Positions 1 to 6,959 of a stretch of 6,976 nucleotides of DNA are shown piece after piece. This DNA is from Candidatus Vampirococcus lugosii (GTDB lineage Bacteria > Patescibacteriota > Gracilibacteria > Absconditabacterales > Absconditicoccaceae). Both the position numbers and the translations under genes were made by a program. Within the stretch, counting starts at the first letter, position 1. Each line of letters opens with the position of its first letter. Location of the stretch: assembly GCF_018420025.1 (NCBI RefSeq), contig NZ_JAEDAM010000051.1, positions 1 through 6,976 of the forward strand, given 5' to 3'. The notes beneath the pieces are model-generated. The model had not been told where the DNA came from. It did not search any database and saw only the letters and a list, made by a program, of their open reading frames with translations.

Positions 1-402
1 GATTTAGATTTTAAAGAAAAAACAGGAAGAGTAATTGCTGGTAAAGGAGATAAAGATAGGATTATAATATTATCTAAAAATTGGATAGAAAAGTATGAAA
101 AATATCTAAAAAAAAGAAAATTTAATTCAGAATATTTATTTGTAAATAATAAAGGTACAAAATTATCTCCTGATAGTATTCAAAAATTCTTAAAAATATC
201 TGCAAAAAAAGCAAATATTCAAAAAAGTGTAAGTCCACATAAATTAAGACATTCTTTTGCAACTTCTTTATTAGAAGAAGATGTAAGTATTAGATATATA
301 CAACAACTTCTAGGTCATGCTAATTTAAATACTACTCAAATATATACTAAAGTAAATACAAATAAATTAAAAAATATTAAAAATCCTTTAGATAGCTTAT
401 AA
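1..402 (+). CDS. xerA: Tyrosine recombinase, XerA/XerC/XerD family; C-terminal catalytic domain only, 5' end lies outside the window
   Basis: Frame 1 is open from base 1 to TAA at 400-402. It is absent from the ORF track because there is no ATG in the window. My translation reads DLDFKEKTGRVIAGKGDKDRIIILSKNW...SVSPHKLRHSFATSLLEEDVSIRYIQQLLGHANLNTTQIYTKVNTNKLKNIKNPLDSL. It carries the HxxR box (HKLRH), the LGH box and the catalytic Tyr (QIYT) of tyrosine recombinases. The gene symbol is inferred from the archaeal context. Confidence 0.85.
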   Translation, partial: DLDFKEKTGRVIAGKGDKDRIIILSKNWIEKYEKYLKKRKFNSEYLFVNNKGTKLSPDSIQKFLKISAKKANIQKSVSPHKLRHSFATSLLEEDVSIRYIQQLLGHANLNTTQIYTKVNTNKLKNIKNPLDSL

Positions 403-886: not shown

Positions 887-1240
887 ATGAGTACAAGAAT
901 ATCAAAATTATTTGGAATGGATATATATCAAACAGATGCAACTTATAGAGGAAAAGTACACGACCTTATAGTTAATTTAGAACAAGGTATTGTAGAGACT
1001 GTTACAACTCAACCTTTAAAAGTAAATTCTAAAGTAGAAGCTAAAAAAATAATAACAGATTATAGTATACCTTATAATAAAGTTATTTCTGCTGATGATA
1101 TATTGTTAATTAATGCAGGTAATGTTCCAGCTAATAATAAAAAAGCACCTGCAGCTAAAAAAGAAGAATTTAAAGATTCTAAAGAAGAACAAATTAGAAA
1201 AAAATATATAGGTTATAGAAGTAGATATTCTAGAAGATAG
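887..1240 (+). CDS. PRC-barrel domain protein with a Lys/Arg-rich C-terminal tail
   Basis: N-terminal ISKLFGMDIYQTDATYRGKVHDLIVNLEQGIVETVTT fits the archaeal PRC-barrel pattern S.L.G..V....G...G.V.D......G.I. A strong SD precedes it. The ORF ends in TAG and is followed by oligo-T runs. The tail is AAKKEEFKDSKEEQIRKKYIGYRSRYSRR. Confidence 0.8.
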   Translation: MSTRISKLFGMDIYQTDATYRGKVHDLIVNLEQGIVETVTTQPLKVNSKVEAKKIITDYSIPYNKVISADDILLINAGNVPANNKKAPAAKKEEFKDSKEEQIRKKYIGYRSRYSRR

Positions 1241-1363: not shown

Positions 1364-1966
1364 GTGAACAAAATAAAATCAGATTATATAAAATATAATT
1401 TTATATTTCCAGAGGGTACAAATCATTCTTCTTATATATATCAAAAAGTATTTAGATCTATATATGGATATAGTCAAAATGTTACTAAAAAAAATAATAA
1501 AATATATACATATTTAAGAAAAGGGATTATTTCAGAAATACCTTATATAAAACCAGGAAAAAATACTGTTATTTTACCTTTAAATAATAAAGATTTATTA
1601 TTAGATTATTTTAAAACAGGAATTAATCCAACTCATAATTGGAAAATAAGAGGAGATTGGAAAGTTGATTATAATATAGATACTATTGAAGTTGATTCTG
1701 AGAGTATAATTAGAAGTTTAGAATATTATATAAAAAATTATAAAGTAATTAATATATTTAATAAAAATAATTTATTATTAAATGAAATAGAATTTTGTAT
1801 AAATAATAATAATATAAATAAAGATTATATTGATTATATATATAAAATAATAAATAAAATAACTAGTTTTAATTGGTATAAAGAAGTTTATAATGATTCT
1901 GAATATTTAACTAATTTTAATAATAAAGTAATTGAATTTAAGAATAAATTTTATAATAATGAATAA
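1364..1966 (+). CDS. Hypothetical protein (200 aa), GTG start
   Basis: The ORF has no internal Met codon and starts at GTG 1364, directly after an in-frame TAA. A G-rich SD-like GGGGGG lies at 1351-1356. The first ~90 aa are non-repetitive (YIYQKVFRSIYGYSQNVTKKNNKIYTYLRKGIISEIPYIKPGKNTVILP), which argues for a real gene. The C-terminal half is Asn/Ile/Lys/Tyr-rich. I cannot assign a family with confidence. Confidence 0.55.
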   Translation: MNKIKSDYIKYNFIFPEGTNHSSYIYQKVFRSIYGYSQNVTKKNNKIYTYLRKGIISEIPYIKPGKNTVILPLNNKDLLLDYFKTGINPTHNWKIRGDWKVDYNIDTIEVDSESIIRSLEYYIKNYKVINIFNKNNLLLNEIEFCINNNNINKDYIDYIYKIINKITSFNWYKEVYNDSEYLTNFNNKVIEFKNKFYNNE

Positions 1967-2562: not shown

Positions 2563-2694
2563 TAGTAATTACCGTAATTATTTTAAAGGGTATAGTAATT
2601 ACAGTAATTATACTAAGGTATTTTTAGTAATTACAGTAATTATTAGCTTATATTTTATAGTAATTACTTAAATTTTATTGGTAATTACAGTTAT
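2563..2694. repeat. Array 1 of the palindromic motif GTAATTAC (5 perfect copies plus 3 one-mismatch partner sites)
   Basis: Perfect copies are at 2565-2572, 2595-2602, 2627-2634, 2660-2667 and 2681-2688. Partner sites GTAATTAT, 9 bp downstream, are at 2574-2581, 2604-2611 and 2636-2643. The 19-mer TAGTAATTACAGTAATTAT is identical at 2593-2611 and 2625-2643 and differs by one base at 2563-2581. Confidence 0.85.
2580..2593 (-). promoter_or_regulatory. Putative archaeal promoter (BRE-like ATACCC plus TATA TTTAAAAT) for the 1967-2557 gene
   Basis: The minus strand reads ATACCCTTTAAAATAATTACGGTAATTACTATATGT-ATG. The TATA centre is about 26 nt from the A of the ATG, which fits a leaderless mRNA. 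GTAATTAC sites lie on both sides of it. Confidence 0.4.
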
Positions 2695-3059
2695 TTTTAT
2701 ATAATTTATATATTTTTTATAAATTAAGTTAATAAATATATATTTATACATATCAAAAATATTTTTTATTTAATATTTTATGTATATATATTTGTATATT
2801 TGTGTAAAATTAGTCTTTTTTTATGATTTTTTTCTAATTTTTATATTTTTTTTAATAATTTTTAGTTTAAAAAAAGTTTTTATAGTCTTTTTTTATAATT
2901 TAAATATCTTTAATACCTTTAATTTTAATTTAAATTATAAATTTTGTTTTATTTTTTATTTAAAGGGTATTTATAGCTTTAAATACGTTTAATTTTAATT
3001 AATTTATATGTCCAAGAATTAGATCAAAATTAAAATTTATTTAAAAAATAGTTATTAAA
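2695..3059. other. Gene-free, ultra-AT-rich spacer with internal direct repeats
   Basis: My hand count gives about 33 G/C in 2701-3060, roughly 9% GC. Stops are frequent on the minus strand, and the only tracked ORF here (2780-2992, plus strand) is a low-complexity Phe/Ile/Leu artefact. TAGTCTTTTTTTAT occurs at 2811-2824 and 2883-2896. ATAC(C/G)TTTAATTTTAATT occurs at 2913-2930 and 2983-3000. Both pairs are about 70 bp apart. Confidence 0.5.
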
Positions 3060-3134
3060 TAGCGGGGAGTGGATTTGAACCACTGACCTTCGGGTTATGA
3101 GCCCGACGGGCACTCCAGACTGCCCCACCCCGCT
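3060..3134 (-). tRNA. tRNA-Met (anticodon CAT), initiator type
   Basis: The reverse complement folds as a cloverleaf: AGCGGGG-TG-GGGC-AGTCTGGAGT-GCCC-G-TCGGG-CTCATAA-CCCGA-AGGTC-AGTGG-TTCAAAT-CCACT-CCCCGCT-A. An A1:U72 pair and three consecutive G:C pairs closing the anticodon stem are hallmarks of archaeal/eukaryal initiator tRNA. No CCA is encoded. Confidence 0.9.
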
Positions 3135-3155
3135 ATAAAAAATAAAGAATATAGT

Positions 3156-3208: not shown

Positions 3209-3781
3209 TTATTCACATATATACCCTTTAGTATCATCATTAATTTTATTTAATATCTCTTCTAATCTATTTATATTTTTCTGAATATTTGTTTTCTTTC
3301 TTTTTAATGTAGTTATTTTTTTCTTAGTATCTACCATTTCTAAATTAGAATTACAATTAGGACATTTAAAATTATAACCTGCTGCTTCTTCAAAAGGTAA
3401 TTCAATACATTTTTTAGGACAATAAAAAAAGTCGTGTATTTGTTTATCTTCAATAGTATATTCTAATTTTTTAAATTTCTTCATTTCTTGAATTAATAAT
3501 ATCTCTATAATTTTTTTATATTTTATTTCCCAATAAAATTCATATAAATTATTATCTTTTCTTCTTTCTTTTTTATAACATGCAATACCTCTATAGTGTA
3601 AACTATTTAATGTAGATCTTACTACTGTTATTTTTTCATTTAATTTATCTGATACTTGTTCAGGAGTTAAAGATTGTTTTTCAAACATTTTAACAATATC
3701 TGTTGCTAAAGGTCCTGCTATTTGTTTTAAAAATTCTAATGTATTTTTATCTTTTAATAATTCTTGTTTTAATTTCTTCAT
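3209..3781 (-). CDS. tfe: Transcription factor E (TFE alpha, archaeal TFIIE-alpha homologue)
   Basis: The N-terminal winged helix (FLKQIAGPLATDIVKMF...LTPEQVSDKLNEKITVVRSTLNSLHYRGIACYKKERRKDNNLYEFYWEI) matches the conserved TFE pattern. It is followed by a zinc ribbon, YCPKKC...(17)...CPNCNSNLEMVD. Confidence 0.9.
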   Translation of the reverse strand: MKKLKQELLKDKNTLEFLKQIAGPLATDIVKMFEKQSLTPEQVSDKLNEKITVVRSTLNSLHYRGIACYKKERRKDNNLYEFYWEIKYKKIIEILLIQEMKKFKKLEYTIEDKQIHDFFYCPKKCIELPFEEAAGYNFKCPNCNSNLEMVDTKKKITTLKRKKTNIQKNINRLEEILNKINDDTKGYICE

Positions 3782-3830: not shown

Positions 3831-4355
3831 TTATTTTAAATTAATTACATTCTTATTATCATTATTAGGTATTATTTTAATCTCTGAATTATAATCTTTA
3901 TTTTCTATAGATTTATTATCTATTAAATATAATATCATAGCAATTGCAGCAACTTCACTATGTGGTTGATTTGTTACACCTATATTATAATTAGCTATCT
4001 CATAGTATTTATGTTCTACTTTTGGTCCACCAACAATTAATAAAATATTTTTATTGTTTTTTATTTCTTTTATTTTCTTTGTAATATTTTCTCCATACAT
4101 AGTTAAATGAATAATTATGTATTTTTCTTTTTTTAATTTTTTCACAAGTTCATATGGTTTTTGTGTATAATTAATTTCAAAAGAACTTCCAAATTTATTA
4201 TTTATTTCTAAAACATTTTTTTCTATATTTTTATCTTGGATTCCAGAATAAAAAAAACTATTTGCTTTAAATGCTCTAGATACTAATGCACAATGTGTAG
4301 TTATTCTTTTATCTCTTAAAGGTCTATGATCTAATTTTAAAATCTTTATGTTCAT
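3831..4355 (-). CDS. trm56: tRNA (cytidine56-2'-O)-methyltransferase aTrm56 (SPOUT family)
   Basis: [34 protein letters not shown] and [37 protein letters not shown] align colinearly with my recollection of Pyrococcus aTrm56 ([50 protein letters not shown]). Confidence 0.9.
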   Translation of the reverse strand: [174 protein letters not shown]

Positions 4356-4744: not shown

Positions 4745-4784
4745 CTCTAAATTCTATTTTTATTTAAATAATAATTTTGTTTAA

Positions 4785-4887
4785 TAGTAATTACTCTTTT
4801 TTTATTAAGTAATTACACAATAATTTACAGTAATTACTATTTTTCAAGTAATTACAGAATATTTTATCAAGTAATTACTATAATTAC
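4785..4887. repeat. Array 2 of the palindromic motif GTAATTAC (5 perfect copies plus degenerate partners)
   Basis: Perfect copies are at 4787-4794, 4809-4816, 4830-4837, 4848-4855 and 4871-4878, with start-to-start spacing of 22, 21, 18 and 23 bp. A one-mismatch partner ATAATTAC is at 4880-4887, 9 bp after the last copy. A degenerate TAATTTAC is at 4821-4828, 9 bp before the third copy. Confidence 0.85.
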
Positions 4888-4940: not shown

Positions 4941-6959
4941 ATGCAAGACAATTTAACACCAATGATGAAACAATATGTAGAGACTAAAAAAAAATATCCT
5001 GAAGGTATATTATTATTTAGAGCTGGAGATTTTTATGAGATGTTTTACGATGATGCAAAAATAGCATCTGAAATACTAAACATAACTTTAACAAAAAGAG
5101 GCTCTGAAAAAATAAATGTTCCTTTAGCTGGAATTCCTTTTCATTCTATAGATCCATACATAGCAAAATTAGTTAAAGCAGGAAAAAAAGTTGTAATTTG
5201 TGAACAAACAGAAAATCCAAAAAAAGCAAAAGGTTTAGTTAAAAGAGAAGTTACTAGAGTAATTACTCCTTCAACTTTATTTTCACAAAACTATGAAAAT
5301 AATTTTCTTTGTTCAATAACATACTTAAATTCATCCTTTGGTTTTTCAATTATAGACATAACTACAGGTGAATTTAAAGCTACAAACTTTACTAATCTTT
5401 CAACATTACTTAATGAATTAAATTCAATAAAACCAAAAGAATTATTACTTACAAAAAATATTCTTAAAAATTACAAATTATATGATGAAATAAAAAAAAC
5501 ATTACCAAACACAATTATTAATTATACACAAAATTTAGATTTAAATAACTCTTTAGAAAATCTAAAAAAACATTTTAATTTAAGTTCTTTAGAGGGTTTT
5601 GGAATTTCAAAAAATCCAGAAATAATAATCTCTTGTAATAACGCTTTAGTTTATTTAAAAGAAACACAGTTTTCTAAATTAGAATATATTAAAGTAATTA
5701 CTAGATATTCCTCTAAAAAATATTTAATGCTTGATAGAAAAACTATTAGAAATTTAGAATTAGTTTCAAATCTTCAAGATAATACTATAAAATATTCTTT
5801 ATTTTATTTAATAAACAATACAAAAACTGCAATGGGTTATAGAAAATTATTTTTTGATATAACTCATCCTTTATTAGAAAGAGAAGAAATTAAACAAAGA
5901 CTAGATGCTATTGAATATTTAAAAGATAATTTAGTTTATTTTCAATCAATTAATGAAAACCTATCATATATTTCAGATATTGAAAGAATTATAAGCAAAG
6001 TTGGTTTTAATAATGCCTCACCAAGAGATTTAGTTTCACTTAGACAATCTTTAGATATTATTCCTGAAATTAAATTTATTTTAAAAAAAACAGATAATAA
6101 ACTATTACAAGAAATAGATAAAAATTTAGAAGATGTAAAAGATTTAAGAGAATTACTACATAAATCTATTGTAGATCAACCCCCTTTTAGTGTAAGAGAA
6201 GGTAAATTTATTAAAGTAGATTATAATAAAGAATTAAATGAATTAATAAACATACATAAAACTATAGATTCCTGGATTACAGAATATGAATATAAATTAA
6301 AAAATGAATTAAACATAAAATCTTTAAAATTAAAATTTAATAAAATATTTGGTTATTACATAGAGATTCCTAAAACCTATACATCTAAAGTTCCAGATTA
6401 TTTTGAAAAAAAACAAACTTTAGTTAATGCAGAAAGATATACAACTAAAGAATTATCTCAAAAAGAAGAAACTTTAATTAATGCTAAAGAAAAAAGATTT
6501 GATTTAGAATTTCAAATATTTACAGATATTTGTAAAGATGTTTTAAATTATCAATCAACAATACAAAACATTTCTAAATATTTAGGTTTTTTAGATTTAA
6601 TAATATCTCATACAAACACATCTATAACAAATAACTATAATAAACCAAATCTAAAAGAAACAAATAGACTTTATTTTAAAGATTTAAGACATCCAATTAT
6701 AGAAAAACAAACTGAATTTATCCCAAATGATTGTGATTTAGATAATGAGAATAGAACTATGATAATAACAGGCCCAAATATGTCTGGAAAGAGTAGTTAT
6801 ATGAGAAGTGTTTGCCTTTCTATTATTTTAACACATACAGGGTGCTTTATTCCTGTTAATGACTCTGAAATTGGTTATATTGATGGTGTATTTACTAGAG
6901 TAGGCGCATCTGATGATATCTTACATGGACAAAGCACTTTTTTAGTTGAGATGTCTTAA
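4941..6959 (+). CDS. mutS: DNA mismatch repair protein MutS (bacterial MutS1 type). The ORF stops at an in-frame TAA after the STF(L)VEM motif, before Walker B and the C-terminal domains
   Basis: The N-terminal mismatch-recognition domain carries the Phe-X-Glu motif (GDFYEMF, F31/E33). Also present are the Walker A motif ITGPNMSGKSSYMRSV and the motif GQSTFLVEMS. The alignment is colinear with E. coli MutS up to about residue 675 of about 850. The stop lies 17 nt before the window end. Confidence 0.9.
   Translation: MQDNLTPMMKQYVETKKKYPEGILLFRAGDFYEMFYDDAKIASEILNITLTKRGSEKINVPLAGIPFHSIDPYIAKLVKAGKKVVICEQTENPKKAKGLVKREVTRVITPSTLFSQNYENNFLCSITYLNSSFGFSIIDITTGEFKATNFTNLSTLLNELNSIKPKELLLTKNILKNYKLYDEIKKTLPNTIINYTQNLDLNNSLENLKKHFNLSSLEGFGISKNPEIIISCNNALVYLKETQFSKLEYIKVITRYSSKKYLMLDRKTIRNLELVSNLQDNTIKYSLFYLINNTKTAMGYRKLFFDITHPLLEREEIKQRLDAIEYLKDNLVYFQSINENLSYISDIERIISKVGFNNASPRDLVSLRQSLDIIPEIKFILKKTDNKLLQEIDKNLEDVKDLRELLHKSIVDQPPFSVREGKFIKVDYNKELNELINIHKTIDSWITEYEYKLKNELNIKSLKLKFNKIFGYYIEIPKTYTSKVPDYFEKKQTLVNAERYTTKELSQKEETLINAKEKRFDLEFQIFTDICKDVLNYQSTIQNISKYLGFLDLIISHTNTSITNNYNKPNLKETNRLYFKDLRHPIIEKQTEFIPNDCDLDNENRTMIITGPNMSGKSSYMRSVCLSIILTHTGCFIPVNDSEIGYIDGVFTRVGASDDILHGQSTFLVEMS

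Follow-up and report, generated by a model that had tools for sequence, protein, structure and literature searches.

What are five copies of one palindrome doing in the DNA immediately upstream of a small orphan gene? The question is raised by contig NZ_JAEDAM010000051.1, which we analysed in its entirety (6976 bp, 20.7% GC; hereafter the window). Positions 1967-2557 on its minus strand encode a 196-aa protein with a predicted winged helix-turn-helix (wHTH) domain, and the octamer GTAATTAC recurs between the start of this gene and the next one upstream. In the answer that we favour, and that we rate as reasonably probable on the basis of sequence comparison, the array acts as a cooperative operator for the orphan wHTH gene beside it, probably serving negative autoregulation through promoter occlusion.

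Palindromic sites upstream of the wHTH gene

The exact GTAATTAC octamers start at 2565, 2595, 2627, 2660 and 2681 and span 124 bp, the first of them beginning 8 bp upstream of the gene's ATG (its A at 2557). Three of them form part of a 19-bp composite, TAGTAATTAC(C/A)GTAATTAT, at 2563-2581, 2593-2611 and 2625-2643, which repeats at spacings of 30 and 32 bp. A preliminary description of the window had reported these five octamers, the three composites every 30-32 bp and a minus-strand TTTAAAAT between composites 1 and 2, and every one of its coordinates was borne out. Its picture was accurate but incomplete, in that it omitted a second array upstream of mutS, the helical phasing of the sites and the satellite clusters in relatives.

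Read in the direction of the gene, the proximal composite operator (2563-2581) is ATAATTAC-g-GTAATTAC-TA. It lies at -24 to -8 relative to the ATG and so occupies the interval from the predicted TATA box to the presumed start. Each composite can be described as a 17-bp double site, ATAATTAC-N-GTAATTAC, in which the centres of the two octamers are 9 bp apart. The putative TATA box TTTAAAAT (2580-2587, minus strand; ATTTTAAA on the plus strand) is centred ~26-27 nt upstream of the ATG, a position that would imply a leaderless or near-leaderless mRNA with the start as predicted. The middle composite operator (2593-2611) is directly upstream of the position of the TATA box and TFB recognition element (BRE), and is followed by the distal composite operator (2625-2643) and by two single octamer sites: tAGTAATTACt (2660-2667), 33 bp from the preceding octamer, and gGTAATTACa (2681-2688), 21 bp from the preceding octamer. 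The extended octamer consensus is a 10-bp palindrome, R-GTAATTAC-Y.

The window as a whole contains 12 exact copies of GTAATTAC where 0.20 are expected. None of 200 dinucleotide-preserving shuffles produced 12 copies, the maximum being 2, and with one mismatch permitted there are 25 octamers against 6.35 expected. A text search of the literature for GTAATTAC returned only primers and unrelated text.

Conservation, phasing and satellite sites

For comparison, we used the window together with 13 further loci that encode homologues of the 196-aa protein (216,954 bp in total; 21-51% GC). L003 came from a DNA scan, L027, L028, L029 and L204-L209 from look-up of the exact protein, and L043, L113 and L122 from a scan for the octamer-array pattern. 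The 14 genomes are related, and the binomial and phasing statistics below overstate their independence. Gene order was the same wherever a contig reached: XerA, a PRC-barrel protein, a homologue of the open reading frame ORF200, the wHTH gene, a long intergenic region, tRNA-Met, TFE and Trm56. (The L206 contig ends 234 bp upstream of the gene and only the XerA side is visible.)

Sites matching GTAATTAC were found ≤450 bp upstream of the homologue in all 14 genomes, at identities in the C-terminal domain down to ~43%, so that the candidate regulator gene and the sites occur together throughout. These upstream regions make up 2.9% of the sequence and hold 53 of the 75 exact octamers (binomial p ~5e-64, uncorrected for shared descent). 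Four relatives of 43-51% GC were covered over 10-20 kb; the expectation there is ~0.3 copies per 20 kb, and all of their exact copies lie ≤135 bp upstream of the gene: at -56 in L204; at -65 and -24 in L205; at -132 and -73 in L206; and at -21 in L208. Every exact copy in the 9.8-kb L043 locus is likewise ≤135 bp upstream of the gene. The other intergenic regions in the ~217 kb of the 14 loci were free of the motif, apart from satellite clusters near the same locus, and stray octamers in the mutS genes of relatives are at conserved V-I-T codons. The preliminary description had named a generic presence of the motif in intergenic DNA as a possible refutation; this is disposed of in these 14 loci, where the sites are linked to the gene.

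An array of GTAATTAC does not by itself identify the system. A scan of genome contigs for the 19-mer composite gave 26 matches, nearly all of them single chance matches in bacteria, with L003 the only informative one. Scans for three-octamer patterns listed at least 120 metagenome and 54 viral matches; among those listed, most were unrelated perfect tandem or other palindromic repeats, and three were new relevant loci. Unrelated arrays of this kind, such as AGAGTAATTACTCT in L077 and TAGTAATTACTAT in L106 (also L066, L053 and L047), are common in metagenomic and viral contigs, and thus the array alone is not diagnostic. Among the 174 listed array loci, the wHTH family is the largest cluster of array-adjacent proteins, tied in raw size with overlapping reading frames that come from two loci only.

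The arrangement of the sites is also conserved. In an alignment of the intergenic region from five genomes, only the last ~100 columns could be aligned, and there the three composites ATAATTAC-N-GTAATTAC and a box CCTTTA(A/T)A are in register. About half of these columns are invariant, against ~10% in the rest of the intergenic region. The box lies between the middle and proximal composites in the AT-rich relatives, directly before the proximal one, and the proximal module (C)CTTTA(A/T)A-ATAATTACgGTAATTAC-TATA is near-identical in the window, L003, L027, L028, L113, L122, L207 and L209. The more GC-rich clade follows the same plan with other combinations of halves: in L205, TTACCGTAA is followed by a TATA-like TTATTTTAA and then by GTAATTAC, and L208 is similar; in L043 the order is GTAATTACCGTAA, gAATTATAA, GTAATTAC and then ATAATTATGGTAATCA across the start codon. 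Several genomes have a coding sequence (CDS) that begins ATG-GTA-ATT-AC (M-V-I-T), with a site ATGGTAATTAC overlapping the start. The conserved feature is thus the presence of sites on both sides of the predicted TATA box and up to the start. This is the occlusion-type geometry that the preliminary description had proposed, and it is kept in both the AT-rich and the 43-51% GC relatives, each with a TATA-like element flanked by sites.

The spacing of the sites follows the helical repeat. Across the 14 loci, the distances between neighbouring octamers were 12 bp (n = 2), 18-23 bp (n = 15), 30-33 bp (n = 14), 39-42 bp (n = 5) and 53, 59 and 61 bp; none fell at 13-17, 24-29 or 34-38 bp, and the values cluster near 21, 31 and 42 bp. 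A Rayleigh test with a 10-10.5-bp period gave R = 0.63-0.68 (p ~1e-7 to 1e-8) on data that are partly non-independent. Such phasing would place the sites on one face of the DNA, and points to cooperative binding with bending or wrapping.

The second array in the window (4787-4887) comprises five AGTAATTAC(T/A) sites at 4787, 4809, 4830, 4848 and 4871, with spacings of 22, 21, 18 and 23 bp, the last of which forms a composite with ATAATTAC at 4880. It is situated 2.2 kb from the main array, between tRNA-Phe (which ends at 4745) and mutS, and stops 53 nt short of the mutS ATG at 4941. It has no counterpart in L003, L027, L028 or L029, where mutS follows ~40-58 bp after tRNA-Phe, and a cluster of octamers upstream of mutS is likewise absent in L113, L122, L207 and L209. 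The second array may be an auxiliary or secondary operator, serving either as a lineage-specific extra target (the mutS-mutL operon) or as a looping partner. Two further copies of GTAATTAC are within the mutS CDS. The copy at 5259-5266 encodes V-I-T of the conserved TRVITPS, with the same codons in L027 and other relatives, and is accounted for by coding constraint; that at 5694-5701 is specific to the window.

Relatives have satellite clusters of their own. In L209 the wHTH and ORF200-like genes converge across a gap of 58 bp, which contains three sites at +570, +590 and +611 (10571-10619). In L207 (satellite coordinates 8320-8367 and 10074-10123), a canonical composite with a GGTAATTACC site 31 bp further on lies within the Trm56 CDS, where the residues encoded differ from those in the window, and a single site and a composite lie within the wHTH CDS itself. 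L122 has two sites in its own wHTH CDS, at +91 and +109. These own-CDS sites fall in the region of the wHTH gene that encodes the N-terminal linker; L113 and L207 also have one site at the 3′ end of the gene. A different kind of element is seen in L204 (9626-9913), L205 (9565-9905) and L208 (9590-9908), each of which contains five same-strand TTACTT(T) elements where 0.2-0.3 are expected. Their spacings are 62, 62, 63 and 94 bp in L204, 95, 73, 83 and 83 bp in L205, and 52, 62, 63 and 135 bp in L208; each departs by no more than ~0.13 turn from an integral number of 10.4-bp turns, and the last element is ~30 bp upstream of the distal palindromic site. The TTACTT elements may be phased half-sites (ATTAC) that extend the array. 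Taken with the second array, the satellites hint at a larger nucleoprotein complex.

A proposed autoregulatory operator and its alternatives

A word-indexed search found 101 homologues of the 196-aa protein, and all of them lacked a Pfam family. When 1.84 billion representatives were searched exhaustively with a profile, only 40 clusters were recovered, with a sharp cut-off. The family is a tight, lineage-specific orphan; as judged by these searches, both the protein family and the motif are new. In the alignment, an amphipathic N-terminus, short and conserved, is joined through a hypervariable Q/N-rich linker to a C-terminal domain of ~90 aa. The N-terminal peptide, within residues 1-15, follows M-x-L-x-x-I-x-N-x-F (in fuller form, M-x-L-x-x-I/F-K-N-I-F-x-K), and its sequence could suit a docking, dimerisation or membrane-binding element. 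The linker (residues ~16-100) is N/Q-rich and 40-120 residues long in AT-rich lineages, is replaced by a short acidic segment in GC-richer lineages, and is absent from forms of 135-157 aa. The C-terminal domain has 20 invariant columns, including EY-N-KSLYPY-KT--D, and an invariant stretch EYKNEKSLYPYLKTLTD.

A winged helix at the C-terminus had been proposed in the preliminary description, with structure prediction suggested as a check. AlphaFold2 gave a confident wHTH model of the domain, with a predicted local distance difference test score (pLDDT) of 87. Foldseek matched this model at a template modelling (TM) score of ~0.5 to the DNA-binding domains of Fur/PerR, PadR, Sso10a, F93, BlaI/MecI and AspA, all at E of 4e-3 or weaker and with no family preferred. 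The modelling supports a generic wHTH fold. A profile search of PDB sequences with the family returned nothing. Membership of the PadR family (PF03551) is not supported: the 196-aa protein scores 13.8-15 bits against a gathering cut-off of 27; PF03551 matches 28 of 54 family members, only below threshold, with a best E of 0.0012. PadR structures are among the Foldseek matches (4esf, TM 0.50; 5x11; 8ioi) and others match equally well.

What the analysis shows is the sites, their statistical excess and in-register conservation, the wHTH fold and the fact that sites and gene go together; from these we infer, in the following scheme, which protein binds, that regulation is negative, where transcription starts and that binding is cooperative. 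The product of the wHTH gene would bind the array in its own promoter, dimers recognising the palindrome R-GTAATTAC-Y and the 17-bp double site being the probable high-affinity dimer site. The composites are separated by about three helical turns and the extra single sites by two to four, so that all of the bound proteins would share one face of the DNA; binding could then be cooperative, with the DNA bent or wrapped. With sites on either side of the predicted TATA box and the interval from TATA to start taken up by the proximal composite, full occupancy should block TBP/TFB binding or the recruitment of RNA polymerase, and the outcome would be negative autoregulation. A concentration-dependent switch is a possible alternative within the same operator. 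The mutS array and the satellites in relatives would be auxiliary or secondary sites, for looping or as lineage-specific extra targets. The preliminary description had put forward an autoregulatory operator as the simplest model, and the 14/14 linkage, the in-register geometry and the wHTH fold all support it. In addition, the palindromes are situated in the candidate regulator's own promoter, flanking the predicted TATA box and start, and the invariant putative recognition region of the protein parallels the invariant DNA motif.

By analogy, the mechanism would belong to a well-known class. MDR1 is one archaeal repressor that occludes the core promoter. LrpA of Pyrococcus and Lrs14 also have operators between TATA and start or over the BRE/TATA, and autoregulate negatively by blocking the recruitment of RNA polymerase or the binding of TBP/TFB (PMC2995911). 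The operator here likewise lies between the predicted TATA box and the start, but the protein is of a different family and, whereas occlusion by LrpA, Lrs14 and MDR1 was shown in vitro, the comparison here is one of geometry alone. For autoregulation through phased multiple sites, the closest comparison is Ss-LrpB of Sulfolobus solfataricus, three interacting dimers of which wrap ~100 bp in a concentration-dependent autoregulation; it stands with LrpA and Lrs14 among archaeal regulators that autoregulate via phased multiple sites or promoter occlusion (PMC2995911). The present array similarly has three composites over ~80 bp at 30-32-bp spacing, with further phased sites beyond. Unlike Ss-LrpB, the present protein has no Lrp/AsnC HTH, RAM domain or Pfam match; the motif and spacing differ too, and the sites here flank TATA and extend to the start codon. 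The PadR family consists of small, dimeric, palindrome-binding wHTH regulators with an operator of the type ATGT-N8-ACAT. PadR offers the best, though weak, sequence resemblance to the present protein as well as some of its fold matches, but an N-terminal amphipathic peptide with a low-complexity linker, as seen here, is foreign to the PadR architecture, and the operator differs from the PadR type.

Several points weigh against the operator as we propose it. Linkage of gene and sites does not establish the adjacent protein as the binder. TATA-like strings occur often in DNA of 10-20% GC, and the start is a predicted one. The relatedness of the genomes inflates the statistics. The half-sites GTAA/TTAC are too close for a canonical wHTH dimer, which bears on the stoichiometry per site. 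Finally, there is more DNA involved than a simple operator needs: 5-8 sites over 130-450 bp, satellites 0.5-2.3 kb away (some within a CDS) and a long conserved intergenic region.

The last of these points is the starting place for the strongest rival, in which the sites nucleate an architectural or centromere-like complex whose main job is the organisation or segregation of the chromosome, autoregulation being a by-product. The many phased sites over 130-450 bp would suit such a complex, as would the satellites (the mutS array; L209 at +570 to +611; the Trm56 CDS of L207; the own CDS of L122 and L207), the five phased TTACTT elements in each of L204, L205 and L208, the strictly conserved long intergenic region and the synteny three genes from xerA. 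The amphipathic N-terminal peptide and flexible linker could dock a partner or the membrane. We know of no partition system in this lineage. There is also a precedent of sorts in AspA of pNOB8, a wHTH dimer which recognises a palindrome upstream of the gene that encodes it and forms a superhelical filament by spreading across >200 bp, and in Sulfolobus SegB, which binds site-specifically to palindromes upstream of its own gene or operon that may double as regulatory sites (PMC5120986). The likeness extends to the palindromes upstream of the gene here and to AspA (4rs8) being among the fold matches, but dozens of ordinary wHTH regulators match at least as well. In sequence the protein shows no similarity to AspA or SegB. 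None of the 14 loci has a Walker-type ParA/SegA ATPase or a ParB partner adjacent to the wHTH gene, which is constantly flanked by ORF200, the PRC-barrel gene and XerA and, at its opposite end, by tRNA-Met, TFE and Trm56. Furthermore, the satellite clusters differ between genomes, and the proximal sites keep a fixed place with respect to the core promoter, for which regulation is a direct explanation. On balance we regard an architectural main role as rather unlikely. Its more specific form, an Iainarchaeota/Diapherotrites-specific chromosomal element at which a complex of several hundred bp recruits satellites up to ~2.3 kb away, we hold to be somewhat more doubtful; if there is such a higher-order complex, the locus could show how tiny genomes organise or segregate their chromosome.

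A second rival keeps the operator but changes the binder: some other trans-acting factor, for instance a global regulator encoded elsewhere or ORF200, would occupy the sites, and the wHTH gene would be merely a conserved target. A second array at another promoter (that of mutS) in the window can be read in this way, and ORF200 is conserved and gives a confident model with no PDB analogue. Nevertheless, the wHTH promoter is the sole constant partner of the sites in the 14 genomes, with the extra arrays varying, and the invariant motif has its parallel in the invariant putative recognition region of the wHTH protein. Self-regulation is usual for small wHTH regulators with palindromes in their own promoters, and ORF200 has no recognisable DNA-binding fold. 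We therefore think it improbable, to about the same degree as the lineage-specific element above, that another factor is the binder.

Replication iterons and a centromere-like site had both been offered as alternatives in the preliminary description, and they found little or no support. The idea of a chromosomal replication origin, with origin-recognition repeats or iterons beside an AT-rich unwinding element, draws on the phased repeats adjoining a 360-bp stretch that falls as low as 5-7.5% GC in the window, on the conserved long intergenic region and on DNA-metabolism genes nearby (xerA, mutS/mutL, ribonucleotide reductase and dUTPase). Against this, orc1/cdc6 was absent within 10 kb on either side in eight 20-kb loci. 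The relatives of ~50% GC are not markedly AT-rich in this region (the lowest 100-bp stretch in L204 is 39% GC), and five 20-kb loci, a short length for the purpose, had no consistent switch in GC skew, the skews following gene orientation. The motif is unlike the archaeal origin recognition box elements known to us, and its sites are in fixed register with the core promoter. An origin here is very improbable. The weakest proposal, that the array is without specific function and simply a generic product of composition, promoters or repeats in an AT-rich genome, deserves next to no credence: TAATTA-like strings are common at 21% GC and unrelated GTAATTAC arrays are frequent in metagenomes, but the shuffles never approached 12 copies, the other intergenic regions of the 14 loci are motif-free and the motif persists upstream of the same gene at 43-51% GC.

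To our knowledge, almost no transcription factors or cis-elements have been characterised in DPANN archaea, none of which is genetically tractable. The cooperative operator, if correct, would supply a concrete protein-DNA pair, consisting of a lineage-wide orphan wHTH family and R-GTAATTAC-Y with its 17-bp double form, in a promoter architecture kept across genomes of 21% to 51% GC. The pair is open to direct test with recombinant protein (GTAATTAC versus GTCCGGAC; ATAATTACGGTAATTAC versus the single octamer) and would anchor promoter and start-site models for these genomes.

The intergenic region, neighbouring genes and source of the contig

The intergenic region between the 196-aa gene and tRNA-Met (3059-3135, minus strand) is 501 bp long in the window. 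The part that remains beyond the main array (2689-3058) falls to 5-7.5% GC, with 7.5% GC across 2701-2900. An Rfam search of the window (E up to 1) found four tRNAs only and left the long intergenic region without an RNA family; a scan with bacterial promoter and terminator models was uninformative for archaeal DNA. Across the 11 genomes in which it was measured, the region is 320-610 bp long and exceeds the other gaps of the same loci; its length is kept across relatives but its sequence is not. One conserved element within it is TTGGACA, at 3009-3015 (TGTCCAA on the plus strand). All AT-rich relatives have the form (T)TC/G-TTGGACA-Y-A once in the long intergenic region, at a distance of 375-500 bp upstream of the wHTH gene, whereas in L204 and L205 TTGGACA is upstream of tRNA-Met instead; it was seen in the window, L027, L028, L029, L113, L122, L003, L204 and L205. 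We considered whether the element might be a dif half-site for XerA, and no 11-6-11 inverted repeat was seen around it.

On the far side of the wHTH gene, the window starts with an XerA reading frame (1-399, plus strand), which is followed by a coiled-coil reading frame, the PRC-barrel protein (887-1240, plus strand) and ORF200 (1364-1966, plus strand), a convergent neighbour that abuts the stop codon of the wHTH gene. ORF200 is present in every syntenic locus and has no match in Pfam, in NCBIfam or in a profile search of PDB sequences. Its AlphaFold2 model has a pLDDT of 90.6, and the best Foldseek match in the PDB (E = 0.2) is not a meaningful analogue. A recognisable DNA-binding fold was not found in the model, and the predicted fold may be undescribed. 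Beyond tRNA-Met are TFE-alpha (3209-3781, minus strand) and aTrm56 (3831-4355, minus strand), and then two tRNA-Lys genes, tRNA-Phe and mutS.

The window is a complete contig; look-ups of its own proteins led to no longer one, and these proteins are deposited under Candidatus Vampirococcus lugosii, a candidate phyla radiation (CPR) bacterium (e.g. MBS8122188.1 / WP_213349515.1). However, it encodes the archaeal proteins TFE-alpha, aTrm56 and XerA, which are Iainarchaeota/Diapherotrites-like, and its gene order is syntenic with metagenome-assembled genomes of Iainarchaeota/Diapherotrites. The named homologues of the 196-aa protein likewise come from Ca. Iainarchaeum and Diapherotrites assemblies. 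Archaeal gene content and synteny together identify the contig as one from a DPANN archaeon that was misbinned into a published CPR bacterial genome, and we flag it as such.

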